64,000 nt of DNA from a virus (IMGVR_UViG_3300031993_006627:64001-128000), one strand, 5' to 3'. Shown: positions 6,537 through 41,526, counted from the first letter of the stretch. Notes: generated by a model not told the origin, from the letters alone. Program-made: numbers and translations.

Positions 6537-8600
6537 ATGACACTTGGCACGCTTATTAAGTTGGCGACAGAGCCGATTGAAATACCAGAAGGAGATCATT
6601 ACGGTCTTGGGAAAGTCCGGGATTTTTCCAATAAATATCTTGGCACGAATTTCACCTTTGGTGGGGATACCACGATTGATACCACACCCAGAGAACTGAT
6701 GCCAAAGAATGACCTTTCTGATGATTTAAGTCGCAGGCAGTCCCTTGTCAACGCATATCAACAGGGCCAGAACGACGCAAGCGACCGTTCCATTTTAGGT
6801 TTTGCCAAACCTTGGACAGAGCACCCCGATTATATTTCTGCCAAGCCGCCGACGGATCCGTGGTTGCGAGAACTGGATGAAGCGAAACGTCAGGGATACA
6901 ATGACAAGATGAAGGGCTACGCCATGAATGCCTCGGAGTATGCCGCTCGTCTGTCAAGAATCGCTCCATACGGTGTCCCACAGGTCGCAGATCGTCTGGC
7001 CGGCGCTATTACAAATGGAAAGATGGGTGTCACGGACTGGAACCAGACCAGGTCAGCCAACGATATTCAGAGAGAATATGCCAATGATGTAACTCGTACA
7101 CTTGATAATCCAGATACGCCACAGGGTCGGGACTATATCGCATTCAGGACGGGACTTACAGCGAATTCCCCGTGGACTGCCGGCATGAAAGACTGGGGCA
7201 GGGCGCACCCTGATAGCCCTATCGGCACAGTCGGAAATGCTCTGGGCCGTGTTGAGGATTTCGGGAACGAGCTGTTCAATAAGGGGAGTCTGATCAATGT
7301 CGGTCTCGCTGGTCCTGTAGGAAAAGCACTCACGTTCGGCAAGATGCGCCCAGGCATGCGCATCGCCGCAGAGGGCGCTGCTCTTGCTGCCCCGGACTGG
7401 GTGTATGCTGCAAGCCCGGAAGCTGCCATGTGGATCGGCAAACGGCCCATGCAGCAGGATGAGCGAGCAGCCCGGTTGACTTATGGTGATGCCATTGCCA
7501 ACCGCATGGCGAACGACAAGTATATGGGCTACTGGAGCGATGATAACGGTAATTACACGTTCAGTGGCTCGCAGATCAAGGATCCGGCGAAATTCGGTCA
7601 GGCTCTTGGTTATTTCCCGGACTACGGGCAGTATCTTCAGCAGCATGACATTGCGCCGGAACACTATGCCAATCAGAATGTACTGATGAACTATGTGATG
7701 AACCGTGTAGGCACCGGCACAGCCGGTACAGAGCTGTTCAACACACCGATGTTCCAGATGCTCGATCCGTCGAACAAGGCAAAGGCATTCGATACATGGC
7801 TGGAGAAACGCTATATCTCTGCGGAACGAAATGACAAGATTGGATGGAATTCTGCAGACAGCAAGGCGGTCAAACTGTCGAAAGCACTTGCCAGTGACTC
7901 GACTGGTGTTCTTCGCAATGGCATCCAGAATTTCTTCCGGTACGCAGATGCTCCGACGATTGCCAATTATCTTGGTAGCCATGCCGGTGGTGCTGGCGGT
8001 GGAACAGAAGGTGACATGGATGCTTTGTACGGCGTTTTGAAAGACAGTATCGTGATGAATATGCGGGAGAATCCCGGACATATCACACCGCTGGTTCAGG
8101 ACCTTGTGAAGCTGAAAGCATCCCAGGATCTGCTCGCAAAGAATGATCCCAATGCATCCATGAAGGGTGCCGAAGTCATCAAAGCGGCTTTCAAGGATGT
8201 CATGAAGGATCCGGAAGTGACTTCCCAGATGAGTGCAAGAGACAGAGAGGAATTCATCGCCGCTGTTGCACCTATCATGGAGACACCTGGTGGCGCTGAA
8301 CTTCTCGGAGGCGAGGCTGATGAAGCCGCTATGGCCGCTGTGCGTAATCTGCAGGGAGATGTTCTCGGTGCGGCTATAAGGCATCCGGATATCATACCGA
8401 AACTTGCCGGTTCCTGGACAGCGACTCATATTTCCCCGGAGGCTGGCAAATATGTCAGCAATCCATGGGTCTTCTGGAGCGTTCTGGCAACATTGGCGGC
8501 CGGCGGCGTGATTGCCGCGAGCAGTGTCTTCGACGATGATGAGGACGAGGACGACGAAGAACGCCAGTACAGAAAGGCAATCAGGCTTCTCAGTCGATGA
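6537..8600 (+). CDS. Putative internal head/ejected protein with C-terminal TM helix
   Basis: Leader MTLGTLIKLA; C-terminal PWVFWSVLATLAAGGVIAASSVF followed by an acidic tract. Confidence 0.55.
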   Translation: MTLGTLIKLATEPIEIPEGDHYGLGKVRDFSNKYLGTNFTFGGDTTIDTTPRELMPKNDLSDDLSRRQSLVNAYQQGQNDASDRSILGFAKPWTEHPDYISAKPPTDPWLRELDEAKRQGYNDKMKGYAMNASEYAARLSRIAPYGVPQVADRLAGAITNGKMGVTDWNQTRSANDIQREYANDVTRTLDNPDTPQGRDYIAFRTGLTANSPWTAGMKDWGRAHPDSPIGTVGNALGRVEDFGNELFNKGSLINVGLAGPVGKALTFGKMRPGMRIAAEGAALAAPDWVYAASPEAAMWIGKRPMQQDERAARLTYGDAIANRMANDKYMGYWSDDNGNYTFSGSQIKDPAKFGQALGYFPDYGQYLQQHDIAPEHYANQNVLMNYVMNRVGTGTAGTELFNTPMFQMLDPSNKAKAFDTWLEKRYISAERNDKIGWNSADSKAVKLSKALASDSTGVLRNGIQNFFRYADAPTIANYLGSHAGGAGGGTEGDMDALYGVLKDSIVMNMRENPGHITPLVQDLVKLKASQDLLAKNDPNASMKGAEVIKAAFKDVMKDPEVTSQMSARDREEFIAAVAPIMETPGGAELLGGEADEAAMAAVRNLQGDVLGAAIRHPDIIPKLAGSWTATHISPEAGKYVSNPWVFWSVLATLAAGGVIAASSVFDDDEDEDDEERQYRKAIRLLSR

Positions 8601-8630
8601 TGACGCGGCGGCTTTACTAAGAGGTGAACC

Positions 8631-9470
8631 ATGACAGATAATCCAGTTTCAAGAGCCGCAAATGTTTACAGAACGGTGACTGTGAACCCGACAATCAATG
8701 CCGGGATGCAGGGCGCGGTGGGCGCTGGCGTCGGTTATACAAGTTGGGATAGAATGATGAGTACGCTTCGTTCTCTTCTCCGCCGGCCTGTGGCAGCCAT
8801 GACCAGAATGTCTCCCAGGGAATTCGACGAAGAATGGGAGGAGATCCAGAAAGACAAGAAGATGCGGATCATCATTCCCAGCAGCATCGGCGCCAGTATC
8901 ATGGGGCTCAGTCTTCTGACTTCTTATCGACCCAATGAAGCACACGGCGGTCTGCTCAGTTGGAACGATGATCCAAAACCGCTGGATAAGACTGTGTATC
9001 GCGGCTACCGGATGCCGAATGATCCGAATCTGGAGATCAAGAAAACGGCGGCACTCAAGAAGCTGGCGAATGACATGTTCGAGTACGGCGGCTTTGTTCC
9101 ACGAGTGGATTTTTCACAGGTGTTCGATGCTCCTGCCATGAGACAGGAACTTTTCTCCAATGACCCCTGGATGAAGAAGGATCCCCTGACACAATACCGT
9201 GGTATCTCGATTCTTGCAGATGCCCAGAATCGTGCTGGTTCTTCGAATGTGTCCCTTGGTAATCTGTACGACAGTGCCATGGACAAATTCAAAACGAAGT
9301 TCAGCCTGATGGGTGTTACCGGTATCGCGGCCAAGACGATGTTCGCCAATGCAGCGTCCGACCTCCTGGTCAATGCTATCGGGACCATGCTTGATGTTCC
9401 ACAGGAGACTCGTGAGGATCTCATCAGCGCCGGTACATGGTACGGTGCAGCAAAAGCAATTCTAACATGA
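8631..9470 (+). CDS. Putative virion protein with hydrophobic segments
   Basis: KKTAALKKLA motif; GAVGAGVG and IIIPSSIGASIMGLSLL segments. Confidence 0.55.
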   Translation: MTDNPVSRAANVYRTVTVNPTINAGMQGAVGAGVGYTSWDRMMSTLRSLLRRPVAAMTRMSPREFDEEWEEIQKDKKMRIIIPSSIGASIMGLSLLTSYRPNEAHGGLLSWNDDPKPLDKTVYRGYRMPNDPNLEIKKTAALKKLANDMFEYGGFVPRVDFSQVFDAPAMRQELFSNDPWMKKDPLTQYRGISILADAQNRAGSSNVSLGNLYDSAMDKFKTKFSLMGVTGIAAKTMFANAASDLLVNAIGTMLDVPQETREDLISAGTWYGAAKAILT

Positions 9471-9480
9471 GGTATTACAT

Positions 9481-9825
9481 ATGAATATTGAGAACGTGAG
9501 AAAGCACATGCTGCACAAGAAAGCCTGGTTGGAGATCACCCCCGTGCTCAAGCAGCTTTTCGGCGGTGCGACAGCCGGCGCGGAAGCCGGTAAGAACATC
9601 GCCCTGTACTTGCTTGGCGCGGCCGCTGTAGGCGGTGGCGCCATCGGCGCTTTCGGGGCCAACATTACGGCTCATGGGAAACAGGATGAGGATACGGTAA
9701 AGAAAGAGTACGAGAATGAACGTCTGAAGGCCGACGTCGGCTATATCGCCAGTCGTCTGGAGGACGAGTACAACCGGTCCAAAACTGCAACCAAACCGAA
9801 AGCCGCAAGGGTGCTGAATGTCTAA
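9481..9825 (+). CDS. Putative virion glycine-zipper membrane protein
   Basis: Leader MNIENVRKHMLHKKA; ALYLLGAAAVGGGAIGAFGA. Confidence 0.55.
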   Translation: MNIENVRKHMLHKKAWLEITPVLKQLFGGATAGAEAGKNIALYLLGAAAVGGGAIGAFGANITAHGKQDEDTVKKEYENERLKADVGYIASRLEDEYNRSKTATKPKAARVLNV

Positions 9826-10279
9826 CGATCCGCTGCTTGGAGAACTGATCTCCCCCGAAGATGTTGTTCTGATCAACGATGAGGATCTCCCTGGTCTCGA
9901 TGATGAAAGGAACAAGAAAGACAAGAATACCGTGACCGCTTACAATGGCGATGTTCTTTTTGCCTATCGGGAAGAGAACAAGATCAACGGTGTCATTGTC
10001 AACGAGGCAGATCGCGATCTGCCGGTCGAACGGGACGATCAGATCCAGCAGTTTTTCCGGCTTCATCATGTACCGCACTCTGAGATCCTCCGTCTGCCGG
10101 CCGACAACGATAAATATAATCAGTTGCTCCAAGACGTTTATGACGGAAAGGCTATCATAGTAGATGAACAGAAACAATTCGATGCTGCCAAAGGCGAGTT
10201 CATTGTCTGGATCCGTTGGGATTCAGTATGCTATGAATTGAGTCCACGGTACGCTTACCTGAAAGAGGACAAGAAATGA
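9818..10279 (+). CDS. Hypothetical phage protein
   Basis: Overlap-coupled ORF with typical codon usage. Confidence 0.65.
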   Translation: MSNDPLLGELISPEDVVLINDEDLPGLDDERNKKDKNTVTAYNGDVLFAYREENKINGVIVNEADRDLPVERDDQIQQFFRLHHVPHSEILRLPADNDKYNQLLQDVYDGKAIIVDEQKQFDAAKGEFIVWIRWDSVCYELSPRYAYLKEDKK

Positions 10280-11337
10280 ACAAAACAGCCGGACCATCAG
10301 CGGCATGGGGCAGCAGCCCTTATGGCTCCTATGTAAATACAGCGTTTCCTTTCTCCCAGTTATTTGGGATGACTGACCGTATTCCGAAAACATGGGTTGA
10401 CATGTTTCCGCACACAGAGGGTGGCCAGCGTGCCGCGCATATTACGTTCAAGGCCGGCTTCGATGCTCTTCTGGCGGCCGGACTGATCGCATTGTATCGC
10501 GGTGCCAACCATATCAGCCGCATGGCGGATATGGCAAAGAGCGATAACCCGGCCAAGGGCATGAAGTCCCAGCTCTCCACTACGTTTGCCGGCTCGCTTG
10601 AACCGGAGAAGCAGAAGAAGAACGCATCGTCCAAGTGGGGCCCGAATACCCTGGATCAGCCGGCTGTTTTCAGCATGGGGAATGCCTTTGGCACAGCTCT
10701 TCCCCTTGGCGCCGTACTTCTTGCCACGGCGGCCGCGTACAAAGCCACGGATGACTATCTGGACAAGCAGCGCAACAAGGCGCTCGATGTCGCCATCAAG
10801 AGCAAAGAGAATGCTCTGAAACGTCTTATCAAAACTCGCTCCAGACTGGCGAAAGGCAATGCTACTGACGGAGAAGTCCAAAGTGCGCTTCGCGGCATCA
10901 ATAACGAAGACCTGTATGTGAAGCAGGCCGGCATGGATAAGCAGGCATTCCTGGATGGTCTTTGGGATGCCATCAGCGGCGGTGCCCGGACGACCGTCGG
11001 TGGTTTCTCTGCGCTCAGCTGTCTTCTTCTCGGAGCTGCGGCGGTCGGTTCCTATTACTACTTCAGCAAGGCGGATGAGAACAACGTCAGATACCGTGCT
11101 ATGAAGCACGGTCTGAAGGAATATGCCCGTACACGCACCGGCTATACACCGATTGCCATTATCCCGTCGAAATCCCGGAAATTCTTTGCTGACATCGACG
11201 AGGAGAATGCTGCGATTTCCAAGAAGAAAAAGGAGCAGCTTGCGGCTGCTCCGAGTGTTGAGCCCGTTACTTCAGTGCGTGATGAAAAACCCTTGCTGAC
11301 AGAGGATTATAACAAGCCGATCTCCCTTACTCTGTGA
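10276..11337 (+). CDS. Putative virion membrane-associated protein
   Basis: MNKTA, VKQAGMDKQA motifs; three hydrophobic Ala/Gly-rich segments. Confidence 0.55.
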   Translation: MNKTAGPSAAWGSSPYGSYVNTAFPFSQLFGMTDRIPKTWVDMFPHTEGGQRAAHITFKAGFDALLAAGLIALYRGANHISRMADMAKSDNPAKGMKSQLSTTFAGSLEPEKQKKNASSKWGPNTLDQPAVFSMGNAFGTALPLGAVLLATAAAYKATDDYLDKQRNKALDVAIKSKENALKRLIKTRSRLAKGNATDGEVQSALRGINNEDLYVKQAGMDKQAFLDGLWDAISGGARTTVGGFSALSCLLLGAAAVGSYYYFSKADENNVRYRAMKHGLKEYARTRTGYTPIAIIPSKSRKFFADIDEENAAISKKKKEQLAAAPSVEPVTSVRDEKPLLTEDYNKPISLTL

Positions 11338-12968: not shown

Positions 12969-13532
12969 ATGAACTACCCTGTTCCTTATAAATACAACAT
13001 GACGAAGCAGGCGGAAGACGAGATTGCTCCGCCGGAATTCACTGCGAAAGAATGGGATCCCGGCTATAAAGCCAGCGAGGAGCAGAAGACTTATGCGGAC
13101 TGGCTGCACCGGTACTATGACCGCATGGATGAGTACACGGGAGAAGTCACCACGACGAAGCATCGTTTCGCCCAGTCGCTCGGTACTATTGCCGCTGCTC
13201 TTATCGGTGCGGCTGGAGGTGGCGCTCTTGGCCTGCTTCTTGGCGGTAAGAACGGCATGAGACTCGGTGTTCCGCTGGGCTTTTCCGCTGGTATGGCGGC
13301 TGATATTCTCGGTGCTGCCTATGGCTACAAGCAGCCAGCACGCTCCAAGAAGGAACAGATGGATTACATGAGCAGTAACGATGGCATTCTGCCGGAGCTT
13401 CTTACACCAGGCTACGCCGGCTATCAGCGCGGTCGCACTGCCAAGCATGTGAATTCCGTGGTCTCCAGGGAGATCCCGAAGAGCGTTATGAATTCCAAGG
13501 TCCGCAATTTCAATGATGTTGCACCCGCCTAA
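12969..13532 (+). CDS. Putative virion glycine-zipper protein
   Basis: MTKQA motif; IAAALIGAAGGGALGLLLGG and GVPLGFSAGMAADILGAAYG hairpin. Confidence 0.55.
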   Translation: MNYPVPYKYNMTKQAEDEIAPPEFTAKEWDPGYKASEEQKTYADWLHRYYDRMDEYTGEVTTTKHRFAQSLGTIAAALIGAAGGGALGLLLGGKNGMRLGVPLGFSAGMAADILGAAYGYKQPARSKKEQMDYMSSNDGILPELLTPGYAGYQRGRTAKHVNSVVSREIPKSVMNSKVRNFNDVAPA

Positions 13533-13553: not shown

Positions 13554-14156
13554 ATGAAACTTACACAACGCGAAATCAACATGGTGAAGCTCGCAGCCGC
13601 GCAAATCGCGGTCAACCGCAGCATGAAGAAACAGGCTTCTTTCCAGGAGAAGCTGGCGAGCTATGGAATCGGTCTGTGCAAACAGGCGGAAACCTATGGC
13701 CAGGCGATCAGCCGACAGGTTGACAAGGGTCTTGATAGTTTTGGCAACTGGCTGGACAAATCCTGGAAGACAGTCCAGATGAATGCCGGTAAGACACCAA
13801 ATCAGGTTAACCCACCATCTGATGCTGAATATCAAAAGGGCTATGAAATCTACGGAAGAAATCTCAAAGGTCCTTTCATGACACGTGTCTCTGGTTCTCC
13901 GTTGTGGGAAGAGACGGCTCGTGATCGCAAGATGAATAGGAGACTACAGAAAGAGGATGCCATATTCAACGCTCGGCTCGCTGCACGGGCTGCCAAAGAA
14001 CGTTTTCAGCGTCAGAAGAGCAATTTCCAGTTGAACATGGATCTTGCTCGTGGTGCCTCGACTCCAGAACGGAGAGATGATTATCTGAGAGAAGCTCGTC
14101 TTCTTCCGCCTCGTGATGACTTCGAGGCAACTTATCTCAACATTTTTAACAGGTAA
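13554..14156 (+). CDS. Putative internal head protein
   Basis: Four K-x-A motifs in the first 45 aa (KLA, KQA, KLA, KQA); AGGAG SD. Confidence 0.55.
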   Translation: MKLTQREINMVKLAAAQIAVNRSMKKQASFQEKLASYGIGLCKQAETYGQAISRQVDKGLDSFGNWLDKSWKTVQMNAGKTPNQVNPPSDAEYQKGYEIYGRNLKGPFMTRVSGSPLWEETARDRKMNRRLQKEDAIFNARLAARAAKERFQRQKSNFQLNMDLARGASTPERRDDYLREARLLPPRDDFEATYLNIFNR

Positions 14157-14897: not shown

Positions 14898-15065
14898 ATG
14901 CAGGCATATGCACAGTTCAAGATCGGACAGACGCCTTCAACGCCTACGGTAAAACAGAACGCAGCACCGATCCAGACTGTACAGCCGCAACAGCCTACGC
15001 AGTCGAATCCTTCCGGTGCACCAAAGCTGGAATCTTACGCGGAATTCAAGGGACAGAACAAATGA
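14898..15065 (+). CDS. 55-aa Gln/Pro-rich small protein (below the ORF-track cutoff)
   Basis: GAGGA SD; TGA overlaps ATG 15062 (ATGA); terminal repeats AYAQFK and SYAEFK. Confidence 0.55.
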   Translation: MQAYAQFKIGQTPSTPTVKQNAAPIQTVQPQQPTQSNPSGAPKLESYAEFKGQNK

Positions 15066-16789
15066 CACTCAACGAATTGATCAAGACAGCAGCGCCGAAT
15101 AATGCGCCAGTACAGACTGCCAAGAAACCTGCCCCGGATACGCAGCCGACACAGGCGCAGAAGGTACAACCGCAGTCCGTCCAGCAGCCACAGCAGAAGA
15201 AATATACTGCCAAAGATCTACCCAAAACATCACTGGAACCGCTTTATAAACGCTATGCACAGCAGGAAAACAGTGAGAGTCTTATGGATTGGTCTCCTGC
15301 CGCGTTTGCAGGATTCGAGAGAGATGTACAGCGCCTTGGAGAGCAAAATGCGCGGCAGGCTGAGGAATCCTATTATCAGCAGGGTCTGAACGAGATCCTG
15401 CAACGCAGCCCCTGGGTTGCCCAGCAGATGGGCTCGATGCCCGGTGCCACACCGCAGGAACTCTATGACCAGGCTGTCCGTATGGAACATTACGGGGCTA
15501 CACAGCAGGGCGTACCTGGCGCCATGGCATATCAGCAACAGCAGGAAGCTGCCAGACAAGCGGAGGCCGCACGTCAGCAGCAAATGCAGGCGCAAGCTGA
15601 TGCACTGAACCGGCAGCAGAGCGCCTTCTGGAACCAGCATCATCAAGTACAAGCTGCAACTGAACGTGCCCGGAATCAGGCTATACAGAATCAGATGGCT
15701 CAGCAAATGCAGGCTTACAGCAACTGGTACAAATCTCCGGAACAGGAAATGATCCGAGCAGATGCCCAGTACAAGAACAGCCCTGAGTATGCGAATTATG
15801 ATCTCCATCAGAATATCATAGGCAACTATGAAAACATGAACAACGAGATCAACGCCATGCTGGATTACGTCTATGGGAAGTACCCTAATATGACTCCAGA
15901 GCAGCGAGCTCAAATGGATGATCTTGGTTTCCGACGCTGGGGCCAGACTTATACTGATCGCAGAAATGAATTCATAGCGAAACAGAATGCCCAGGCCCAG
16001 GAGAACTACAGACTTTCCACGGTGGCTTACAATGCCTTCCAAAAGGACGCACAGGAAGCCATGCGGAATACTGATGTGCGGAATGGTTTTGACATGGCGG
16101 CCTTTGAAGCCCAGTGGGAAAAAGAGCACGGTCTTCCCCCTGGTTCTGTTCAACGTGTTCGTCAGGAGGCGTCGGTGGCGTTTACGCCGATTCCTCTTTA
16201 TACACCGCAGACTCAGCAGGCAGTTGCACAGCGTGAATTTTCCGGTGACAATATCGCAGCGGCAGAAGCAAAGGCCAAGGCGGAGGCTCAGAAATATGAT
16301 GAAATCAACAAACCGGCTCCGAGCACCCAACAGACCGTGACTGCTCAGACAACAGGAACGCAACCGGCGGGAACTGCCGTGCCTGCCACCGGTACCCAAG
16401 TGGCCAGCACGCAAACCAGTGGTAAGCCGGTCAATACCGGAAGCGGCAGACCAGTGGAACAACTTCCAGCTGATTTAGCTGGGGAAGGAAGCAACCCGAA
16501 TCCTAACCCGAATCTGGGTGCAGGTGGATCTCCTTCTGATCTCGGCCTTATGGCCTGGGCGCAGGAACATCCGAACATGGCAGCCGGTATCGCGGCTCTG
16601 CTTACAGGTGCTCTCACGCTGGGTCTTAGTGGCGGTGGCGGCGACAAGAAGAAAGATAGCTCTCTTGGCCTGGTGCTTGCAATGCTTCTTTCCACGGGCG
16701 CTTTCTTTGGTACAAGGAGTCTTCTGACGCCGGAACAAGTTGCCCAGAATTCCAGTAAAGTCATCGACAGTACCAAATCCGGAACATGA
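15062..16789 (+). CDS. Putative internal head/ejected Gln-rich protein with C-terminal TM hairpin
   Basis: Leader MTLNELIKTAA; two C-terminal hydrophobic helices separated by DKKKD. Confidence 0.55.
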   Translation: MTLNELIKTAAPNNAPVQTAKKPAPDTQPTQAQKVQPQSVQQPQQKKYTAKDLPKTSLEPLYKRYAQQENSESLMDWSPAAFAGFERDVQRLGEQNARQAEESYYQQGLNEILQRSPWVAQQMGSMPGATPQELYDQAVRMEHYGATQQGVPGAMAYQQQQEAARQAEAARQQQMQAQADALNRQQSAFWNQHHQVQAATERARNQAIQNQMAQQMQAYSNWYKSPEQEMIRADAQYKNSPEYANYDLHQNIIGNYENMNNEINAMLDYVYGKYPNMTPEQRAQMDDLGFRRWGQTYTDRRNEFIAKQNAQAQENYRLSTVAYNAFQKDAQEAMRNTDVRNGFDMAAFEAQWEKEHGLPPGSVQRVRQEASVAFTPIPLYTPQTQQAVAQREFSGDNIAAAEAKAKAEAQKYDEINKPAPSTQQTVTAQTTGTQPAGTAVPATGTQVASTQTSGKPVNTGSGRPVEQLPADLAGEGSNPNPNPNLGAGGSPSDLGLMAWAQEHPNMAAGIAALLTGALTLGLSGGGGDKKKDSSLGLVLAMLLSTGAFFGTRSLLTPEQVAQNSSKVIDSTKSGT

Positions 16790-16882: not shown

Positions 16883-17896
16883 ATGACTTATCAAGAAGCT
16901 CTCAAGAAACGCGCTCGTCTTGCTTACACCGGTCTCCAGAAGAAGGCCGAAGGTGATGAAGCACAGAACAAAGCCTGGAACAAGAAGGTCGACGAGGAAG
17001 AAGCCGGTCGCCAGCACTATATCGCTGAGAAGAACGGTATCGTGAATCGTGCCAAGGGTGAACAGGCCGTTCGTGATATCCAGGATGAGAAAGATCGTGC
17101 TGCTGCCAGCGCGGCTTATATCGCCAACTACCAGAAAGCACTGGACAACAACCTGGCTTCCGGTCAGGCGTACTCCGACAAGCTCAAAGAGCTGGCTGCT
17201 CTGACAGCTGTCGCCCCGGCGGATTATACGGACAAGATGAATCAGGTCGTGAATCGTGCTCTCGGCGAAGAAAAGTCCCGTCAGCTTACGAAGCAGAAAG
17301 AAGACAACGCCGCTTTCAATGCGCAGAATGACGCCATGCTTGCTCAGGCTATGCGTGATCAGGGTATCGCGAATATTCAGGGTGCTCTTTCTGTCCCTGG
17401 CATCCAGCGTCAGCAGTATCTGGATTCTCTTGAGCCCCGTCGTCAGGAGATCGAGCAGCTCGCCAACAAGAACCCGCAGCTTCTCTATCCGATTCTGAAT
17501 GATCTCGTCAATCACGGCGCTTCCGCTGATGCAATCATCAACGCGCTTACTCAGGCGGATGTCGCGAAGGGCATGGAATTCGACAGTGCTCACCGCAAGG
17601 AAGTCGCTGCCCAGAAGGCTCTGGAAAATCGCAACCTCGGCATTGGCATCGGCGCCGGCGCTCTCGGCGGTCTCGGTGCTGCCGGTGCTGCCTATGGTCT
17701 CGCCGGTCTCTTCCCGTCCCTCCGCAAGAAACGTCTCCTCCGTGCCCTTATCGCTCTCGGCGTCGGCGGCGCGGCTGGTGCTGGTATCGGTATCGGGACG
17801 ACCAAGGGTCTCAACAGTGGCGCGATTCAGGGTGCCTACGGCGCTACCAAGGATTACCTCGGTAGTGTCGGCCGTGGACTCTCCGGAAAGGCCTGA
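16883..17896 (+). CDS. Putative abundant virion coiled-coil protein with glycine-zipper hairpin
   Basis: Leader MTYQEALKKRA..QKKA; codon bias like the capsid gene; LGIGIGAGALGGLGAAGAAYG and LIALGVGGAAGAGIGIG. Confidence 0.6.
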   Translation: MTYQEALKKRARLAYTGLQKKAEGDEAQNKAWNKKVDEEEAGRQHYIAEKNGIVNRAKGEQAVRDIQDEKDRAAASAAYIANYQKALDNNLASGQAYSDKLKELAALTAVAPADYTDKMNQVVNRALGEEKSRQLTKQKEDNAAFNAQNDAMLAQAMRDQGIANIQGALSVPGIQRQQYLDSLEPRRQEIEQLANKNPQLLYPILNDLVNHGASADAIINALTQADVAKGMEFDSAHRKEVAAQKALENRNLGIGIGAGALGGLGAAGAAYGLAGLFPSLRKKRLLRALIALGVGGAAGAGIGIGTTKGLNSGAIQGAYGATKDYLGSVGRGLSGKA

Positions 17897-19001: not shown

Positions 19002-19051
19002 ATAGTAGAGAGTGATACGCGCCCGGTTACATAAGAGGAGACCATAACATG
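19001..19051 (+). repeat. Promoter/RBS leader, copy 1 (copy 2 at 20641-20688)
   Basis: Shared blocks TATAGTAGA, ACGCG, TACATAAGAGGAGA, AACATG. Confidence 0.75.
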
Positions 19052-28698: not shown

Positions 28699-28707
28699 GG
28701 AGTGCAT

Positions 28708-32845: not shown

Positions 32846-33766
32846 ATGTCCGAAACAGCCGCACCGACAGTCGAGGTGCTGGAAGATATGCCGGAAATCC
32901 CGGCAGAAAGAACTCCCTCTTGTACCAGGGAGTTCTTTCTGCGTCCACCGGACTGGAGATACCAGGCGGCTGTGCGGTATCTCAATGATGAGAAGCATGG
33001 TATCACTCCGACGATCCCGACGGATTCCTATGTCCAGTATGCCATCCGGATTCTCCGTGCATACCAGCGAGCCGGTACCAGAGTGTATCTGGAAACGCTG
33101 GCCCCGGATGCTGTGTCAGTCATCATTCTCGGTGTCTATAACAAACACTCAGCTATCACGGCCGACATCGAGGGTTGCCTTATCAACGGTACTACCACGG
33201 AAGCAGCCAGGTTCGAGGGCTTTTATGTAAAGCCGGCTGTGTTCGATCTCTACGCCAAGATCTTCTGCGACCTGTCCGGTATTCAGGCGGTTCATTCCTG
33301 GATTCATGACTTCTTGATCGAGCCGGAGCGCTACAATGAGAACACCACGCTGCTGAAAGCCAGGCTGCTTGCCTACTACGGCGGCCAGAAGCTCGGTGGT
33401 GCAGCTGCCATCACCGGTTATGTCGATGATGATACGCAGTCGATGATGAAAAAGATCGCCAATAATGAGCAGCTGAAGCGCATTTTCGAGTACATTGTCC
33501 GTTCGACAGACATGAACAATGAGGACTATGTCGCGATCATGGAAAGTGCCGTTAAAAGTATGACGGAGAAAGATTTTCAGGAGCACATGCGCGACAGGGA
33601 CGAGGCTGGATCGAGCTCTTTGAACGAGATGGCGGAGCACCTGGAAGAAGGCATTAGAGCTTATAGTCAGAAGGAACTGGAATCGTTCAACCAGAACGGC
33701 CTGGACTTCGTTAATCAATATACACCAGTGATAATCCGAAAGGAAACTACGGATGATGGAAAATAA
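32846..33766 (+). CDS. Hypothetical phage structural-region protein
   Basis: AAGGAGG SD; coupled to the next gene. Confidence 0.7.
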   Translation: MSETAAPTVEVLEDMPEIPAERTPSCTREFFLRPPDWRYQAAVRYLNDEKHGITPTIPTDSYVQYAIRILRAYQRAGTRVYLETLAPDAVSVIILGVYNKHSAITADIEGCLINGTTTEAARFEGFYVKPAVFDLYAKIFCDLSGIQAVHSWIHDFLIEPERYNENTTLLKARLLAYYGGQKLGGAAAITGYVDDDTQSMMKKIANNEQLKRIFEYIVRSTDMNNEDYVAIMESAVKSMTEKDFQEHMRDRDEAGSSSLNEMAEHLEEGIRAYSQKELESFNQNGLDFVNQYTPVIIRKETTDDGK

Positions 33767-35495
33767 AATCTCCCACGAGGACGAGCGCAAGTTGACGAAT
33801 GCCATCGAATCGGCTGTCACGCTTGCCAACAATGATGAGTCCCGCAACAGAAGTGCCACACTTGCCGGCCAACTGAAGGAAGCTGGTGTTGATTCCCGTT
33901 TTGCCAAAGTTGCGGCCGCTGCTTTCAACAAGCGCCTTACGGTGCTGACCTTCAAGAAGACAGCAGATGAGCACAAGGCCGATCCTTTCGAACTGGCAGA
34001 CGGCGACAAGGTGCTGGAGCTGATGACAGGTGAATCCCTGGAAAAAGCTGCCAGTGCCGAGCCTGTTTTCGAGATTTCCTTCCAGAATACTACACCGGCT
34101 ATGCAAAAGGCGGCTTCTGCGGAAACCAGGTTTTCCCGTCCGCTGTACGAAGACACAGTTCGTTACCAGGCACTCGTGTCTCATATCGAAAGTGTCATGG
34201 AGAAGAACGCTGCAGCTCTGCAGGATATCGTGTATGCGCATGATGACGAGCAGTGGAAAGCTGATACGCTGGCCACGGAGCTTGCCGATTACTTCATGAA
34301 GAGCGCCTGTGCTTCTTTCGAATTTGACACGCTGGTGAACGCTTACGGCGACCGGTTCAAGAACGCCATTGCGGACAAATTGCCGGAGTCTACGGAATTT
34401 ACCAAGACTGCCAGTGGTGCGATCACCCCGGATACTCCGCTGTATCGGAAGGCTTCCGCTATGATCGCTGCACACGAGAACGCAGAATCGCTGAAGAAGT
34501 CCCTGGAATACTACGGCGCCGGTCTCAGTCAATTCTGCAAAGCGGCTGCCGATCTTGGCGATCTCATCCAGAAGCTGGAACTCGGTATTGCCAAGAAAGC
34601 TGCTGCAGACATCGGAAAAGAATATCTGTCGGAGCTTGGTATGCTGCTTCCGGCCGGCGTCCGGTCTGCAACTGATTTTATGACAGGTGCCGTGAATGAC
34701 ATCACGGATACCTCCAGGAATGCGCTTACCAACGCATACGCTCTGTACCGTGCGGGCAACTCCGCACACATGGCGCCGAATGAGATCCTGGATGCAGAAT
34801 TCCTGACGAAGGATCGCTACAGAGATCGTCTCCTTGGCTGGTCCGATATGACCGCTGATCCTCAGTTTGCCATGTATCCGGCGGAGCAGGTGTTCCTCGC
34901 CACGCAGAAAGCGATGGACATGGATACTACTCTGGAACGCCCGGACAAGCGCGAATTCCTTCGTGCTTATGTTGCGCAGCTCCTGGCGCAGAACAACAGA
35001 TTCTCTACCGCTGATGTTGCGGCTCTTGCCCAGACACTTCGCGGATTCACTTCTGCTGATGGTCACGGTATTACCCAGCTGGCAGTCAATGATGTCAAGC
35101 AGATTGATGAGAAGAAAGCACCTGAACTCCCGACACTCACTCCGCTTATTGGTGAAAAAGCCAATGTAAAGGAAAGGAAGGGGTCTGTCTGGGATGATGT
35201 TGAGAAATCCCAGAAAGCCTTCGACGAGGCTGCAGGCAAGAAGGACAAGGAGAAGAGCGAGACCAAGGAGAACGCCGAGAAAAGCAAGAGCGATAAGGCG
35301 AAGGCGCTCGCAGATGCCAGAACCGCCCGTAACCAGTTCCTCACTGGTGTCATGAATATCGCGATTGGCATAGGACCCAAGGGTGAGCTCACATATACCC
35401 CAGCCGGAGCAACGAAGGGACTCAGCCAGAAGGAAATTGATGCAATTCTTGCCAACGCGGAGAAAGCCAACCTTGTTCCCGGTCTTCCAGTGTAA
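33753..35495 (+). CDS. Putative head core protein with many K-x-A motifs
   Basis: KKTAD, EKAAS, QKAAS, MKSAC, TKTAS, KKAAA. Confidence 0.6.
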   Translation: MMENKISHEDERKLTNAIESAVTLANNDESRNRSATLAGQLKEAGVDSRFAKVAAAAFNKRLTVLTFKKTADEHKADPFELADGDKVLELMTGESLEKAASAEPVFEISFQNTTPAMQKAASAETRFSRPLYEDTVRYQALVSHIESVMEKNAAALQDIVYAHDDEQWKADTLATELADYFMKSACASFEFDTLVNAYGDRFKNAIADKLPESTEFTKTASGAITPDTPLYRKASAMIAAHENAESLKKSLEYYGAGLSQFCKAAADLGDLIQKLELGIAKKAAADIGKEYLSELGMLLPAGVRSATDFMTGAVNDITDTSRNALTNAYALYRAGNSAHMAPNEILDAEFLTKDRYRDRLLGWSDMTADPQFAMYPAEQVFLATQKAMDMDTTLERPDKREFLRAYVAQLLAQNNRFSTADVAALAQTLRGFTSADGHGITQLAVNDVKQIDEKKAPELPTLTPLIGEKANVKERKGSVWDDVEKSQKAFDEAAGKKDKEKSETKENAEKSKSDKAKALADARTARNQFLTGVMNIAIGIGPKGELTYTPAGATKGLSQKEIDAILANAEKANLVPGLPV

Positions 35496-35507: not shown

Positions 35508-38162
35508 ATGATGAAGAAAAGTTTCCTTCCTGAGTCTTTCAACTTCGACGTCCCGCCGGTGGAGATCATCGGCATGGGCAGCAGAGGCCTCGACAAAACG
35601 GCCATGCTGAAACGCGGCAGCGCTTTCGAGGACGTCATCGACAAACTGGAGAAGAAAGCCAACAGGACTTACCTCCATGTCATTACGACTGGTGCCTACG
35701 AGACCTATGGTCCGAACCTGAACGGTGACGGCTGGAACGGTGAATCTTTCGAACTCAAGTTCCCGCACCCGGAGAACCTGGCGAAGACTGCGATGGTCCT
35801 CGATGGTGGTCTGTCCAAATACCACGACAAGACCTACATGACGGATGGCGCTGTCTACCAGGAACACCAGACCAAGACGGCCGGCGTAGATCCGTCCGGC
35901 GAGATCGTGGCTGCCAAGTATGACAAGATGATGAAACGCGGTGAGCTGATCATCGCTGTTGATACCAACAAGTGGGCTCCCAGGCTGCAGAAGAAGGCCA
36001 AAGGCGAGAACATCTATCTCAGCATCGGTGCCTCTGTTCCTTACGACGTGTGTTTCACGAAAGGAACACTGATTCTTACAGAGTATGGGTATAGAGCCAT
36101 AGACAAAGTGGCAGAAGGTGATATTGTCATGACTAAGTCTGGCACATGGCAACCGGTCACAGCTTCTATGGTGCATTATGCACATATACTCACACGCATA
36201 CACACGATGGGCTTGCCCATAGAAATAGAATGTACTCCGAATCACCCATTTAGCGTTGTGCGTGCACCTAAATGGCTTTCCTGCCAAGGAAGTACAACTA
36301 ATGGGAAAAAACGTAGACATACGACGGATGGAAACGGTGTCTGTCGTGTCTGCGGAAAGATTGTAGATACAACAGAGGAATGGGTAAGCGCAGGTGATAT
36401 TCAGGTAGATGATTACCTGAAAGTCAAGGTGGACGAAAACGCTGAGTTCGACACCGTAGGTGTATCTTTCGCTTATTTATGCGGAATGTACGTGGGTGAT
36501 GGTTGCTTTAGTAAGGCAACCACTGGACGTAGGGAGAACGAGGAAGATGGCTGTGAGTATATGGAGGCGATCAGCATATCGGTTTCCGGATCAGAGAAAG
36601 ATTCTGATATTACCATCAATATCTGTCGTTGCTACAAGCAAGTAACAGGTAAAGATGCTGTGATTAGGGATGACAGCCGTGGTAAAAATGCAAAAGTTGT
36701 ACTTCTAAGTGACAAGCTGTTAACAACCCGTATTTATGACCTCTGTGGTATAGGATCCAAAACAAAACATATTGCGGCAGATATATTCGGCTGGAGCCAA
36801 CGGGAAAAAGCCGCTTTCCTTGCTGGTTATCTTGATGCTGATGGTTGTGTGACTCCAAGCACAAGGGCTATACGTATTTGCACAATCAACAGAGGACTTG
36901 CGCTTGCAACGCAGCGTCTGTTCTGGTCTATCGGTGTTCCTGCTACAACTTATGTCGGGAGCAGCGAAGAAAATCTGCGCAGGAACTCTACGTTCGGATC
37001 GTATTCCTGTTCTTATGCCGTTGGCTCTCGAAAATTAACTGATGAGCTTACACGCTTCTCAGCTAAGTTATCGAGGGTTGGTATGCTCAATGAACTGCAC
37101 AATGGCGGGAATAGTGTTGTTCTTGATTCAGGTTATGCCTATATAAGGGTGGATGGCATTCGAACATTTGAATGTGATCCTGTAGCCGTTTACAATCTTG
37201 AAGTGGAAGGAGATCATACTTATAATGCTGAAGGCGCGGATGTGCATAACTGCGTCATTTGCGGCCGCCAAGCCAAGACTGCCAGTCAGCACTGCGAGCA
37301 TTTCAAGCATCACCGCAACGAAGTCTATGACTGCGGCATGAGAGCCTGCGTCATGAACGATGCCCCGGATTTCTACGACATCAGCGGTGTCAATACACCG
37401 GCCGACAAGATCGCCTTCGTCCTCAAAGAGGTCGGCAGTGGCGACTCCCTGTCGAAGCACGCTTCCCTGCAGGATACGCTGATCGCAGCCAGACTTGCCA
37501 CTCCTACCAGACCCCCGATGGTTCTGACGAAGGCTGCACAGCTTCTGCACAAGCTCTCCCGTATGGAGAAGAAGATCGAAGGCATCATCGAGGGTGACAA
37601 CAAGCCTGATACCGACGTTTTCAAAGACTCCGATGAGGCAAAGAAAGATTTTTTACTCCAGGTGGAAAATTTCCCGGCAGAGGAAGTCATCGACAGTTCC
37701 AACCGCAAGGGAATCCTTCTTACACCGGAAATGCTGTTCAAACTTCTGGGTATGGAGTCAGAAGATGAAGACTCTATTCTTAATGAGTGCGACGACGACT
37801 GCTGCGGTGATATGTCCTGCATGATGCGGGAGCTGGAAGATGATGAAGATGTCAATGAGGAGCTGCTCGACGGTTCCTTCGACAGTCATCCGCCGGTCGA
37901 CTTGAATCTGGATGCTATTCTGGATAAATTCATTCCGGAGTTCGGTATGACAGACCCTGCTCTCAATGGGAAAGCCATCCACATCACCATCATTGGCATG
38001 GCTCCTGGAAAGGGTAAGGTAGACAAGAAGGCTTCCTTCAACAAACTTGCCCAGGAGGCTCTGAGACGCACTTATGCCAGGTATCTCATCAGTTTTGCGG
38101 CACAAAACAATGACAGCACTTGCATGAATGCGCTCATGAAAGTAGCAACAATCGGGAAATGA
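35508..38162 (+). CDS. Putative prohead (head maturation) serine protease with intein
   Basis: NLNGDGW, VYQEH (candidate His), YLSIGASVPYDV|CVICG...HCEH (candidate Ser plus Zn knuckle), DISGVNTPAD; lies upstream of scaffold and capsid. Confidence 0.7.
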   Translation: MMKKSFLPESFNFDVPPVEIIGMGSRGLDKTAMLKRGSAFEDVIDKLEKKANRTYLHVITTGAYETYGPNLNGDGWNGESFELKFPHPENLAKTAMVLDGGLSKYHDKTYMTDGAVYQEHQTKTAGVDPSGEIVAAKYDKMMKRGELIIAVDTNKWAPRLQKKAKGENIYLSIGASVPYDVCFTKGTLILTEYGYRAIDKVAEGDIVMTKSGTWQPVTASMVHYAHILTRIHTMGLPIEIECTPNHPFSVVRAPKWLSCQGSTTNGKKRRHTTDGNGVCRVCGKIVDTTEEWVSAGDIQVDDYLKVKVDENAEFDTVGVSFAYLCGMYVGDGCFSKATTGRRENEEDGCEYMEAISISVSGSEKDSDITINICRCYKQVTGKDAVIRDDSRGKNAKVVLLSDKLLTTRIYDLCGIGSKTKHIAADIFGWSQREKAAFLAGYLDADGCVTPSTRAIRICTINRGLALATQRLFWSIGVPATTYVGSSEENLRRNSTFGSYSCSYAVGSRKLTDELTRFSAKLSRVGMLNELHNGGNSVVLDSGYAYIRVDGIRTFECDPVAVYNLEVEGDHTYNAEGADVHNCVICGRQAKTASQHCEHFKHHRNEVYDCGMRACVMNDAPDFYDISGVNTPADKIAFVLKEVGSGDSLSKHASLQDTLIAARLATPTRPPMVLTKAAQLLHKLSRMEKKIEGIIEGDNKPDTDVFKDSDEAKKDFLLQVENFPAEEVIDSSNRKGILLTPEMLFKLLGMESEDEDSILNECDDDCCGDMSCMMRELEDDEDVNEELLDGSFDSHPPVDLNLDAILDKFIPEFGMTDPALNGKAIHITIIGMAPGKGKVDKKASFNKLAQEALRRTYARYLISFAAQNNDSTCMNALMKVATIGK
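36051..37250 (+). mobile_element. Intein 3 (400 aa) with intact LAGLIDADG homing endonuclease
   Basis: PYDV|CFTKGT...IECTPNHPF...YLCGMYVGDG...FLAGYLDADG...VYNLEVEGDHTYNAEGADVHN|C; AT-richer than the exteins. Confidence 0.93.
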
Positions 38163-38234: not shown

Positions 38235-39389
38235 ATGAACAATCAGCTCGCTTACAAGGCTAACCTCCTTGAGGAAAAGCTCAAACAGTACGGTCTGAAC
38301 AAAGAGGCTGCGCAGTCCATTACGCATAAGAGCCTCCTGTCTCAGAACAACCTCGGTCGTGAAATGACCAATGAGATCCATGAAAACGAAGACGGCGTCC
38401 AGGCTGACACTGATGCTGCCAAGAACCCGGCGACCAACCGCATCGAAGCCATCCCGAATGCTCAGAACCTCAACACCTCCGCTGAAGCGGCTCTCGCCAA
38501 CACCGGCAGTACGGTTGAGACCCAGACGACTGACGGCTGTGCCTCCGAATCTCCTGCTGAGATCGGCAAGTCCGCCGCGTATTTCGCGGAAGTTCTCAGA
38601 GGTATTCAACAGAGGAAGCAAGCGGCTGCGCAGGAAGCAGCCGATCCCTTTTGCACGGCAACTGACGTCTACCTCAAGATTGCTTCCCTCGGCCCTCGTC
38701 CTACTGAGCAGGACCAGGCGGCTGTGAAGGGCCTCATTCAGAAACTCGCTTCTGTGAACCCCGTGTTCGTCCAGACCCGCGATCAGTATGTCATGAAGAA
38801 GCAGGCCGAAGAGGTCGAAGCTCTCGCTGAAGAAGCTGGCATTTCTCCTGAAGATGCTGCGGCCGCCATGGACGCCGCTGTCGCCGCTAACCCGGAAATG
38901 GGCGAAGAGCTCATGGATGAAGCCAACGGCGAAGCGATTGCTGATCTGGCCGGTGCCGAACAGGAAGTCGGCGAACTTACCGAAGGTGCCCAGATGCTTG
39001 CTGATGGCGCTTCCCAGGTTCTCGGCGAAGAAGTCACTGCTGATGACATTGCCAATGCTCTCGAAGATGTCACGCAGATGGCTGACGAAATGGGAGTTGA
39101 TCCCGAAGAACTCATCATGGCTGCTGCCCAGGAGATTGAGCAGGGCGATGAACCTTCCGAAGAAGACATGGAAAACGCGAAGCAGATCGTCGAAATGGCG
39201 GCTGAACAGGGCATGTCTCCTGACGAACTGATCCAGGAAATTGCGGCATCCATTGATGCCGATGAAATGGGTGGCGAAGCCGCTGCCGCAGAAGAACCGA
39301 TTGAGAAGGCAGCCAGTCTGCAGAAACGTCCGGTGAATTCGCGTGTGGCTTACGTGGCGAAAGCCCTCAAAGAAATGGCCCAGAAGTAA
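38235..39389 (+). CDS. Putative capsid scaffolding protein
   Basis: Highly acidic, Ala/Glu-rich helical protein between protease and capsid; G(I/V/M)(S/D)P(E/D)(D/E) repeats; many K-x-A motifs. Confidence 0.6.
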   Translation: MNNQLAYKANLLEEKLKQYGLNKEAAQSITHKSLLSQNNLGREMTNEIHENEDGVQADTDAAKNPATNRIEAIPNAQNLNTSAEAALANTGSTVETQTTDGCASESPAEIGKSAAYFAEVLRGIQQRKQAAAQEAADPFCTATDVYLKIASLGPRPTEQDQAAVKGLIQKLASVNPVFVQTRDQYVMKKQAEEVEALAEEAGISPEDAAAAMDAAVAANPEMGEELMDEANGEAIADLAGAEQEVGELTEGAQMLADGASQVLGEEVTADDIANALEDVTQMADEMGVDPEELIMAAAQEIEQGDEPSEEDMENAKQIVEMAAEQGMSPDELIQEIAASIDADEMGGEAAAAEEPIEKAASLQKRPVNSRVAYVAKALKEMAQK

Positions 39390-39400
39390 GGAGTCGTATC

Positions 39401-39829
39401 ATGGCAGATCAGGCAATGGAAAAGCTCGCCAACGAGCTGATTGAGCGCCTGGGTGTTGTGGAGGCTGAGAATGCTGCCCTGCACAAGGACAATGATGCCC
39501 TTCGTGCCATGGTGCAGCAACAGGCCAAGACGGCTTCTGAAGCAACCATCAAGCAGGTCGATGACGGCCTGCTTGACACCACTTGCGAAAACCTTGTGAA
39601 ATGCGGCGCACTCACAAAGGACCAGGTGGCGCAGGCCAAAGAGATTCTCAAGTCTGACCCGAATGCACCGTTCAAAGTCATTCAGGGTTTCATTGACGAG
39701 AAAACTCTTGTGAAGAGCGCCGCTGCTGACGAAAGTCTCCGTGGAGGCCGGATTGTCGGCAGTTCTCAAGTCAAGCGCACCCCGGAGGACGAATGTTACG
39801 AACGGATGTGCAAGATTCTGCACCTTTAA
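39401..39829 (+). CDS. Putative small scaffold/core protein
   Basis: Coiled-coil N-terminus; EKLA, AKTAS, VKSAA. Confidence 0.55.
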   Translation: MADQAMEKLANELIERLGVVEAENAALHKDNDALRAMVQQQAKTASEATIKQVDDGLLDTTCENLVKCGALTKDQVAQAKEILKSDPNAPFKVIQGFIDEKTLVKSAAADESLRGGRIVGSSQVKRTPEDECYERMCKILHL

Positions 39830-39852
39830 TAACCCAATGAGGAGCTACCATA

Positions 39853-40521: not shown

Positions 40522-40539
40522 GCATAGGAGGAAATAACT

Positions 40540-41526
40540 ATGGCATGGGATCAAGTCAAAGTTGCCTCCGTTTCTGAGGCAGTTCGCTCTCAGCTCGCCA
40601 CCGACGACGCTGACATGCACAAGCAGGCCACCCTCGCGGCCAACGATTACTTCCGGACGGAAATCCGTTCCAACGGTATCCGTCGTAACATCACCCCTCC
40701 GACCCAGGTCACGAAGGATATGTTCGACCCGTCCGAAACCTCCGATTTCCCGATCATCTACGCGGAAGTCGCTCCCAAGAGCTCCGGCGCCTACATGGTC
40801 TCCTTCGAGACCGGTCCTCGCAACGAGAACATCTACGGCGGCAAGATTCGCATCGAGCTCAACCGAATCATGACGAAGAAGTACTCCATCGACAAGATTC
40901 GCCTCGATGCCTACAAGATGCCGCTGCTTGAGATCCTCGAAGACCTGCTCCTCAAGGACATCATGGACGTCGAAGACAACCAGACCATCGGTCTCGACAA
41001 GCAGCTCTGCGGCGAACTCAACATCGTCAATCCTTACATGGGCGTTTGCCGCTACGTCACGACCGGTCCTATCGGCCGCGAAGCTCTCGTTCACCTGAAG
41101 AAGGGTCTCCCGGTTGCCCCTGGCCACCTGATGACCAAGAAGTTCCTCATGAACGACCTCACCTACTTCGATCTCGGTTCTCTCGACCGTACTGAAGTCG
41201 GCGGCGACATGGCTCAGGACATGTTCGTCAACGGCGTCACGATGTCCACTATCCAGGGCATCGACACTGTCGTCACCATCAAGACCGACCTCATCCCGAA
41301 CAAGGAAGTCTTCATCTACACCGATCCGAAGTACTACGGCGGATTCTACGTCTACAAGGACGTCGCCATGGTCGTCGACGAAGTGGATGACATCTGGATG
41401 ACCTTCTTCGCTCACGAATGTGTCGGCGCCTCCGTCGCCAACGCCGCCGGCGTTGCCCGCGCTTCCATGACCGGTACGCTGGTCGAATGGGAAGACGGCA
41501 TTGGCACCCAGACTGTTGTCGGCTGA
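40540..41526 (+). CDS. Major capsid protein (HK97 fold, putative)
   Basis: 328 aa; very strong codon bias; followed by a terminator; N-terminal propeptide-like segment ending HKQA. Confidence 0.75.
   Translation: MAWDQVKVASVSEAVRSQLATDDADMHKQATLAANDYFRTEIRSNGIRRNITPPTQVTKDMFDPSETSDFPIIYAEVAPKSSGAYMVSFETGPRNENIYGGKIRIELNRIMTKKYSIDKIRLDAYKMPLLEILEDLLLKDIMDVEDNQTIGLDKQLCGELNIVNPYMGVCRYVTTGPIGREALVHLKKGLPVAPGHLMTKKFLMNDLTYFDLGSLDRTEVGGDMAQDMFVNGVTMSTIQGIDTVVTIKTDLIPNKEVFIYTDPKYYGGFYVYKDVAMVVDEVDDIWMTFFAHECVGASVANAAGVARASMTGTLVEWEDGIGTQTVVG

Follow-up and report, generated by a model that had tools for sequence, protein, structure and literature searches.

A Lys-x-Ala motif conserved in the head proteins of a clade of large phages is the probable recognition site of their prohead protease

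The region analyzed here is a 64-kb window of viral DNA, bases 64001-128000 of one 164,346-bp contig (IMGVR_UViG_3300031993_006627), in which the head genes at positions 6537-41526, all on the + strand, repeatedly encode the tripeptide Lys-x-Ala (K-x-A), often at the end of a short N-terminal leader. It is nearly certain that this motif has a function and is under selection. Its fuller form, Phi-x-K-x-A↓(A/S), where Phi is a hydrophobic residue and the arrow marks the predicted cut, is probably the recognition and cleavage motif of the prohead protease of a whole clade of phages, encoded in this genome by gene 35508 and active in our reading with its intein spliced out. Head maturation by prohead proteases is already known, and what the evidence supports as new is the K-x-A specificity variant; we found no publication linking K-x-A to prohead processing, and likewise none on the specificity of T5 pb11. 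Genes are named by their first nucleotide in the window.

Enrichment and specificity of the motif

Because the motif had been picked by eye in an initial annotation of this DNA, all 400 a-x-b residue pairs were scanned without bias in the head block (genes 6537-41526; block counts refer to 25 proteins, and the genome-wide contrast to 24 block genes). KxA ranked first over whole proteins, and MxK and KxA were the top two pairs in N termini; the motif is therefore longer than K-x-A, with M, L, or I at -2, then K, x, and A. Against within-protein shuffles, a comparison of the kind that the initial annotation had proposed as its check, the head block held 117 K.A sites versus 76.6 expected (z 5.1) and its first 40 residues 23 versus 6.9 (z 6.3), including 11 K[TQ]A versus 0.7. 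A stricter null, which shuffles the first 40 residues only and keeps local composition (5000 shuffles), gave 7.7 expected for the same 23 sites and 1.36 for the 19 occurrences of [MLI].K.A (z 15), a count attained in 0 of 5000 shuffles.

The excess is confined to the head proteins. K.A lies within the first 40 residues in 17 of 25 head-block proteins versus 0 of 22 tail proteins, and over their whole length the tail proteins carry 31 sites where 32.7 are expected. The initial annotation had noted by eye that tail and baseplate proteins lack N-terminal enrichment, and the count agrees (0 versus 3.8 in the first 40 residues). The tail-block N termini (41625-63045) are in fact free of K.A (Poisson p about 0.02), an absence that may reflect avoidance of accidental processing or mis-targeting. 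Over the whole genome, 14 of 24 block genes have [MLIVFY].K.A within their first 40 residues, compared to only 4 of 175 others (Fisher p=4e-12).

Both residues of the pair are specific. KxA occurs at 1.53 times expectation, compared to 1.07 for RxA, 0.82 for KxS, and 0.77 for KxG. With Lys taken as P3 and Ala as P1, P5 is M, L, I, or F at 62 of 117 sites (background, 19%), P2 is mostly polar (T, Q, K, E) and favors T and Q, and P1' favors A and S (39 of 117 sites), giving the fuller motif M/L/I-x-K-x-A-(A/S). Motifs of the Glu type were not enriched in the head block ([SAG].E, 159 versus 156.9; [LI].E, 94 versus 84) and showed no N-terminal excess. As a control, the same unbiased scan of T4 genes 67, 68, 21, 22, 23, and 24 placed IxE first (z 3.9) and LxE sixth (z 3.2), so the method recovers a true cleavage code, and an unrelated jumbo-phage locus (L009) had no KxA excess (25 versus 27.8). 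Taken gene by gene, the enrichment is strong only for the protease (17 versus 4.9) and 30567 (14 versus 5.2). Position and conservation carry most of the evidential weight.

Beyond the window, two more genes look, from their sequences, like members of the K-x-A set. One, at genome positions 58510-59067 (5.5 kb upstream), encodes a 185-aa protein that starts MKYTDF and has IE-KQA↓AED at aa 28-30; the other, at genome positions 140821-141756 (window coordinate 76821), encodes a 311-aa protein with 9 K.A versus 2.3 expected.

Conservation across the clade

Relatives (L001-L008 and more distant ones) were drawn from IMG/VR, with capsid identities of 87%, 62%, and 40% and protease identities down to 27%. 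In ortholog alignments of the genes from 30567 to 40540, no residue pair is better conserved than KxA (rank 1 of 74 and rank 1 of 68): both residues are kept at 40 of 59 sites (68%) against a relative with 45-62% identity, where the median pair reaches 24%, and at 25 of 56 sites (45%) against a relative with 30-40% identity, where the median is 9%. Among seven further relatives with proteases 27-58% identical, the KxA pair ranks 1 or 2 in five head blocks, 3 in Salmonella phage Arash, and 4 in the most distant relative, L023.

The motif in the major capsid protein

The capsid gene closes the head block:

40540..41526, + strand: major capsid protein, HK97 fold (phrog_2522); 30-aa leader ending DM-H-KQA↓TLA (K28-A30, nt 40621-40629)

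Its AlphaFold2 (AF2) model has a predicted local distance difference test (pLDDT) score of 89, and Foldseek matches it to D3 (2.8e-12) and HK97 (5.8e-12). Within the model, aa 1-34 are of low confidence, and K28-Q-A30 falls inside a segment of pLDDT <50 (aa 26-34) between a leader helix (aa 5-20) and the HK97 body, which begins at about aa 40. A search of 1.84 billion cluster representatives yielded 557 capsid homologs, of which 142 are full length and 22-49% identical to the query. K.A is aligned exactly at K28/A30 in 106 of these 142 and is present in the first 45 residues of 138, and K28 is among only 9 capsid columns conserved at ≥90%. On the model, the predicted cut after A30 would leave 298 aa, near mature HK97 gp5 with its chains of about 280 residues.

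Upstream of the capsid gene, 39853-40521 encodes a conserved 222-aa protein in the same reading frame as 40540-41526, with a single stop and 15 nt in between. A capsid gene split into 39853 and 40540 was considered and rejected: the two genes are distinct, since L003 encodes them in different frames and orthologs exist for each. One 192-kb relative (L004/L008; IMGVR_UViG_3300045988_176357), with a 40% identical capsid protein, appears to differ in genetic code: open reading frames (ORFs) cover 32% of it under table 11 and 90% with TAG read as sense, and near residue 44 of its capsid gene a TAG lies in frame. The standard code is used by sister contigs of that metagenome.

A gp21-fold protease within the head block

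The gene for the putative reader of the motif sits in the head block, immediately before the scaffold-like gene 38235, and is interrupted by an intein:

35508..36050, + strand: prohead protease N-extein, aa 1-181; invariant GLD-KTA site (K30-A32, nt 35595-35603) and invariant H57, H120, and S172
36051..37250, + strand: intein of 400 aa (aa 182-581) with LAGLIDADG homing-endonuclease domain (Pfam Hint_2, LAGLIDADG_3); Cys at its start, His-Asn at its end, then Cys
37251..38162, + strand: prohead protease C-extein; last part of the catalytic domain, then a disordered linker in which K.A sites are conserved and a C-terminal helical domain that ends LM-KVA-TIGK

An AF2 model built on an intein-free ortholog (485 aa, mean pLDDT 78) consists of an N-terminal domain (aa 1-230), a disordered linker (aa 231-268, pLDDT <50), and a helical C-terminal domain. 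When the model was aligned to all representative structures with VIA-align, the best match was T4 gp21 (5jbl_A; Z 11.7, root mean square deviation 2.9 over 144 of 165 residues), followed by the assemblins of varicella-zoster virus (1vzv, Z 6.4) and human cytomegalovirus (8j3s, Z 4.7), with unrelated chains at ≤4.7. Foldseek against the BFVD viral models returned many prohead proteases; against the PDB it returned noise (best E, 0.09). A weak match to phrog_18299, "head maturation protease" (E 0.0017), covers aa 138-206 around S172. The models thus support the product of 35508 as a prohead protease with a T4 gp21/assemblin fold.

The protease family comprises >120 clusters with no Pfam domain and averages 12.5 K.A per protein versus 3.5 expected. 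Across 42 homologs, H57, H120, S172, H198, and S226 are invariant. K.A is fixed at aa 30 (42/42) and aa 35 (40/42) and also at aa 162, and the sites that flank the disordered linker (ortholog aa 241 and 275) and the one at the C terminus (aa 477) are present in 33-36 of the 42.

The 400-aa intein is inserted 9 residues past the conserved serine of YLSxG (S172), and the L001 and L002 orthologs are intein free. In L003 and L004 the protease has a mini-intein of 142-148 aa at a different site, after aa 71; therefore, the protease has two independent intein insertion points.

Leaders and site clusters in cargo and scaffold-like proteins

The head genes run from a portal gene (4643), just before the block, through mostly unannotatable genes (6537-20623), RNA polymerase (RNAP) genes, and large head proteins (30567, 32846, 33753) to the protease, the scaffold-like 38235, 39401, 39853, and the capsid gene 40540, with tail and baseplate genes after it. 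The order from portal to protease, scaffold-like protein, 39401, 39853, and capsid is syntenic in all relatives. PHROGs and Pfam gave no match for most block proteins, and neither megablast of 35508-41526 nor tblastn of the window's capsid protein matched a record in the phage collection. The proteins with sites, besides the protease and the capsid protein, are as follows:

6537..8600, + strand: 687-aa protein; leader MTLGTLI-KLA↓TEP, site K8-A10 (nt 6558-6566)
9481..9825, + strand: 114-aa protein; leader MNI...HMLH-KKA, site K13-A15 (nt 9517-9525)
10276..11337, + strand: 353-aa protein; 5-residue leader MN-KTA↓GPSAAW, site at nt 10282-10290
12969..13532, + strand: 187-aa variable cargo protein; NMT-KQA↓EDE, site K13-A15 (nt 13005-13013)
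13554..14156, + strand: 200-aa protein; four sites in the first 45 aa (K12, K26, K33, K43)
15062..16789, + strand: 575-aa protein; leader MTLNELI-KTA↓APN, site K8-A10 (nt 15083-15091)
16883..17896, + strand: 337-aa protein; leader MTYQEALK-KRA, resembling the T4 capsid targeting sequence (CTS), sites K9-A11 and K20-A22
17958..18941, + strand: 327-aa protein; sites K9 and K28 (RMS-KQA↓AGA)
19049..20623, + strand: 524-aa protein; leader MNIDHIRQSML-KQA↓ADK, site K12-A14 (nt 19082-19090)
20686..26910, + strand: fused virion RNAP beta/beta' subunit, 2074 aa (PHROG RNAP beta matches); DKPK-KTA↓ADW, site K28-A30 (nt 20767-20775)
26949..27926, + strand: 325-aa protein; PLN-KRA↓VAILTPEAMQ, site K14-A16 (nt 26988-26996)
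27928..28698, + strand: 256-aa protein; T4-CTS-like leader MTYTESYIK-KTA↓VEE, site K10-A12 (nt 27955-27963)
30567..32825, + strand: 752-aa head protein; 14 K.A sites (5.2 expected), 10 of them within aa 13-294
33753..35495, + strand: 580-aa head protein; 13 K.A sites, 12 of them in aa 42-282, the next at aa 454
38235..39389, + strand: scaffold-like protein, 18.8% Ala; 7 K.A sites
39401..39829, + strand: 142-aa small head protein; sites K8, K43, K105

Every K-x-A instance listed in the initial annotation is present in the gene given for it, although some lie inside the protein (aa 138 of 8631; aa 216 and aa 222 of 10276), and its estimate of six or more sites each in 30567, 33753, and 38235 compares with 14, 13, and 7 counted. 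Leaders within the genome are in part paralogous, with 6537 and 15062 forming one pair and 9481 and 19049 another.

The proteins encoded between portal and RNAP are largely nonorthologous between relatives (12969 had no ortholog among them), and nearly all have leaders ending in K-x-A. Examples from cargo proteins of L005-L008 are MQTYAEFRKTA, MQTYTEFLMVKKA (the L005 ortholog of 27928), MTYIEAYNMYKQA, MNIERIKNSMLKTA, and MLKTA, and the orthologs of 9481 begin MNIQTV..SMVKRA in L005 and MDIQTVKQA in L006. Within the window, likeness to the T4 CTS is clearest for 16883 and 27928, and it is clearer in relatives than in the window. A strict T4-CTS-like regular expression matched two leaders in the genome, those of 16883 and of one gene outside the window; the ORF set searched probably omitted 27928.

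Where does the mature protein begin? Two natural experiments support a boundary after Ala at the level of sequence. The L005 and L006 orthologs of 10276 start MSNPAAAW and MSGPAAAW, lacking the K-T-A leader, and their alignment begins after the predicted cut. Over aa 1-40, up to the second K-x-A, 17958 and its counterpart L006_8827 are 62.5% identical, and the remainder is not alignable.

In the larger proteins, single sites outlive their surroundings. The sites of 30567 at aa 13, 44, 145, 250, 272, 552, and 574 are kept in most or all of four orthologs (down to 30% identity), the one at aa 145 as its flanks diverge (DPITKTAS, DPIMKTAS, DPLMKTAS), and those of 33753 at aa 119 and 218 likewise persist between diverging flanks. 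The sites of 38235 at aa 23, 112, 148, 170, and 358 are kept in orthologs down to 38% identity, with K-E-A one residue later than 358 in the most distant of them. Orthologs as little as 28% identical retain the 26949 site as K[SRQ]A ahead of [VTA][AS].LTP[EQ]AMQ, and the RNAP site of 20686 is kept in the L005, L006, L007, and L008 orthologs as K[TN]A followed by [AQ]DW.

The 20686 product itself varies in length: it has 2074 aa compared to 1574 aa in the L005 and L006 orthologs (81-82% identical), 2575 aa in L007, and 2633 aa in L008. The extra ~500 aa, after about aa 1490, give weak PHROG matches to terminase large subunit and helicase, and from the sequence would fit an intein with a homing-endonuclease domain.

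Two further annotated genes of this region lack an N-terminal site:

4643..6526, + strand: portal protein homolog (tblastn to Salmonella phage Arash gp204, "portal protein", E 1.6e-43); K-x-A, 0 versus 2.4 expected
28702..30555, + strand: virion RNAP beta' C-terminal subunit (Pfam RNA_pol_Rpb1_5, 3.5e-16)

Cultured relatives

Salmonella phage Arash (OQ632216) and Vibrio phages D69, D148, and D181 are cultured members of the same wide clade, and Arash can be grown on a laboratory strain of Salmonella. Arash gp222 (record 146737-148212) is a homolog of the protease, 27-34% identical over 54-65% of the query, and the Arash capsid protein, gp226, has GLV-KEA↓G at aa 27-29. The Arash head block holds 68 KxA versus 41.8 expected, with N-terminal sites in nine head-block proteins, including the capsid protein, in 0 of the tail/baseplate proteins gp4-gp17, and in 3 of 44 early genes. 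In the published genome, gp222 is annotated only as "structural protein," no maturation protease is annotated, and neither the motif nor processing is described (PMC10585845).

Proposed pathway and alternative explanations

In the pathway that we propose, proteins of the capsid interior carry 5- to 30-residue N-terminal leaders ending in the motif; the bearers would be the variable cargo encoded between portal and RNAP, the large virion RNAP subunit, the scaffold-like proteins, the protease, and the major capsid protein. On the model of the T4 CTS, the leader would bring each protein into the core of the assembling prohead. After shell assembly, the protease would cleave the motif, with the bond after Ala as the likeliest target (P3 Lys, P1 Ala), and so release the mature cargo. 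The N-terminal halves of 30567, 33753, and 38235 would be cut into small peptides, the capsid protein would lose its 30-residue leader, and the protease would free its own catalytic domain from the C-terminal helical domain. The proposal of the initial annotation that 35508 cleaves after K-x-A gains support from the gp21 fold, the head-only enrichment, the conservation, and the disordered linker around the capsid site; cleavage itself, 35508 as the cutter, the scissile bond after Ala, and capsid targeting by the leader we infer by analogy, the bond from the P3-x-P1 motifs of T4, phiKZ, and assemblin.

Several observations weigh against this pathway. Conserved K.A at aa 155, 162, and 190 of the protease lie inside the folded catalytic domain, where cleavage is unlikely. 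Alignment of the protease family to T4 gp21 with hhalign gave nothing usable (probability, 0.7%), so the catalytic residues stay candidates. Because leaders within one genome are partly paralogous, the N-terminal counts lack full independence. An N-terminal site is missing from seven block genes and from the portal gene; the expectation that the motif predicts the internal proteome therefore holds for a subset of virion proteins and not for all head proteins. The Arash virion proteome paper gives coverage percentages only and makes no mention of a protease (PMC10585845), and its table lists 116 proteins, including obvious nonvirion enzymes, with percentages that cannot show processing (PMC10585845). 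The "structural protein" labels of the GenBank record disagree with that table. Finally, Phi-x-K-x-A fits an amphipathic helix, which could dock without being cleaved.

This last point leads to an alternative that we regard as unlikely, in which K-x-A is an uncleaved targeting or docking motif, an amphipathic N-terminal helix that binds the scaffold core, the portal, or the protease and is kept on the mature protein. A hydrophobic residue at -2 and Ala at +2 of Lys would fit one helix face, the N-terminal site of the protease is partly modeled as helix (H28-36), the targeting and processing determinants of the T4 CTS are separable (PMC9026906), and many SPN3US head proteins are packaged uncut (PMC10052503). 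Left unexplained, however, are the clusters of 7-14 sites in scaffold-like proteins and the sites flanking the disordered linker of the protease, the strict identity of Lys and Ala (RxA, KxS, and KxG being unenriched), the location of the capsid site in a disordered linker outside the leader helix, and the 10276 orthologs that start at the residue past the motif.

Could the motif instead be read by another enzyme? A host protease is one candidate, as in Staphylococcus phage 80alpha, since host proteases process the capsid and scaffold leaders of 80alpha-like phages; a lysine-modifying enzyme is another. The link between 35508 and the motif is a computational one, which leaves room for this possibility, yet we consider it improbable: the same motif is found across rumen, marine Vibrio, and Salmonella hosts, a constancy that argues for a phage-encoded reader, and conserved sites are most enriched in the protease itself. 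Least probable by far is that the excess is a functionless by-product of Ala/Lys-rich helical or coiled-coil scaffold sequence and duplicated leaders. The leaders of 6537/15062 and 9481/19049 are clearly paralogous, and a profile of the protease linker matched, among PDB sequences, only designed coiled coils with KIAxxLKKIA repeats. Shuffles that keep local composition nevertheless leave z at 6-15, x is mostly polar, unlike a hydrophobic heptad residue, KxA is the best-conserved residue pair between orthologs, and the motif is fixed in a nonhelical, low-confidence capsid segment in 106/142 distant homologs. The conservation tests bring this explanation close to refutation, and we effectively exclude it.

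Comparison with known systems and implications

The characterized prohead proteases of T4-type and giant phages all cut after Glu (PMC5694885, PMC10052503, PMC9026906). Among known systems, that of T4 is a close counterpart of the proposed K-x-A system, with gp21, its experimentally established motif L/I-x-E (PMC9026906), and the internal proteins IPI-III, which bear the CTS. T4 gp21 is the best fold match, and both systems have short leaders of 10-20 residues with a three-residue P3-x-P1 end on diverse packaged proteins. In both, scaffold-core proteins hold numerous sites, and the protease has candidate sites for autocleavage at either end. In the T4 CTS, MKTYQEFIAE (PMC8442874), targeting depends on residues 4 and 7 and processing on residues 8 and 10 (PMC9026906). 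Leaders in the relatives resemble it, among them those of the form M-Q-T-Y-x-E-F, such as MQTYAEFRKTA, and MTYIEAYNMYKQA. The systems differ in that T4 has P1 Glu where the present motif has P1 Ala, P3 Lys, and a hydrophobic residue at P5, and in that the protease described here has 484 aa, an extra helical C-terminal domain, an intein, and no detectable sequence similarity to gp21.

The giant phages with phiKZ gp175, 201phi2-1 gp268, or SPN3US gp245 likewise package a multisubunit virion RNAP and many ejection proteins (PMC10052503, PMC5694885); their propeptides contain multiple copies of the motif, and their proteases cut themselves at the C terminus (PMC10052503, PMC5694885). The site clusters of 33753 and 30567 look like the multiply cut propeptides of SPN3US gp53 and gp54 (PMC10052503). 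However, these enzymes cut after S/A/G-x-E, and [SAG]xE is unenriched here; their propeptides mostly span 111-254 residues, compared to 5-30 for most leaders here; and the SPN3US portal is processed, whereas the portal of our phage has no site.

Herpesvirus assemblin has the fold in common with 35508, together with P1 Ala and Ser or Ala at P1'. The assemblin domain is joined to a C-terminal scaffold-like domain by a linker with a release site, which would be a further likeness to 35508. Assemblin differs in having a hydrophobic P3 (V/L/I) and two or three substrates, versus P3 Lys and about 18 proteins with the motif here. The suggestion that the specificity lies nearer to assemblin than to the Glu enzymes fits P1 Ala and P1' Ser/Ala only, and not P3 Lys or the fold, which is closer to T4 gp21.

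We lean toward a scenario in which a clade of 130- to 250-kb phages with a virion RNAP would have shifted a gp21-fold protease from Glu at P1 to Phi-x-Lys-x-Ala while keeping a T4-like leader, M-x-T-Y-x-E-F. The clade, which is widespread and mostly uncultivated, occurs in samples from rumen, gut, marine, and sewage sources; Salmonella phage Arash is one of its members. If true, the Lys-x-Ala code would be a new specificity class for the gp21-type fold, and it would correct the annotation of cultured phages, Arash gp222 being an unrecognized protease. It would also allow the proteins that hundreds of uncultivated large phages package, and probably inject, to be listed from sequence alone, among them the virion RNAP and fast-evolving cargo that may act against host defenses. 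Finally, the leaders would provide a second capsid-targeting tag system beside the T4 CTS for loading foreign proteins, such that leader-cargo fusions could be packaged.

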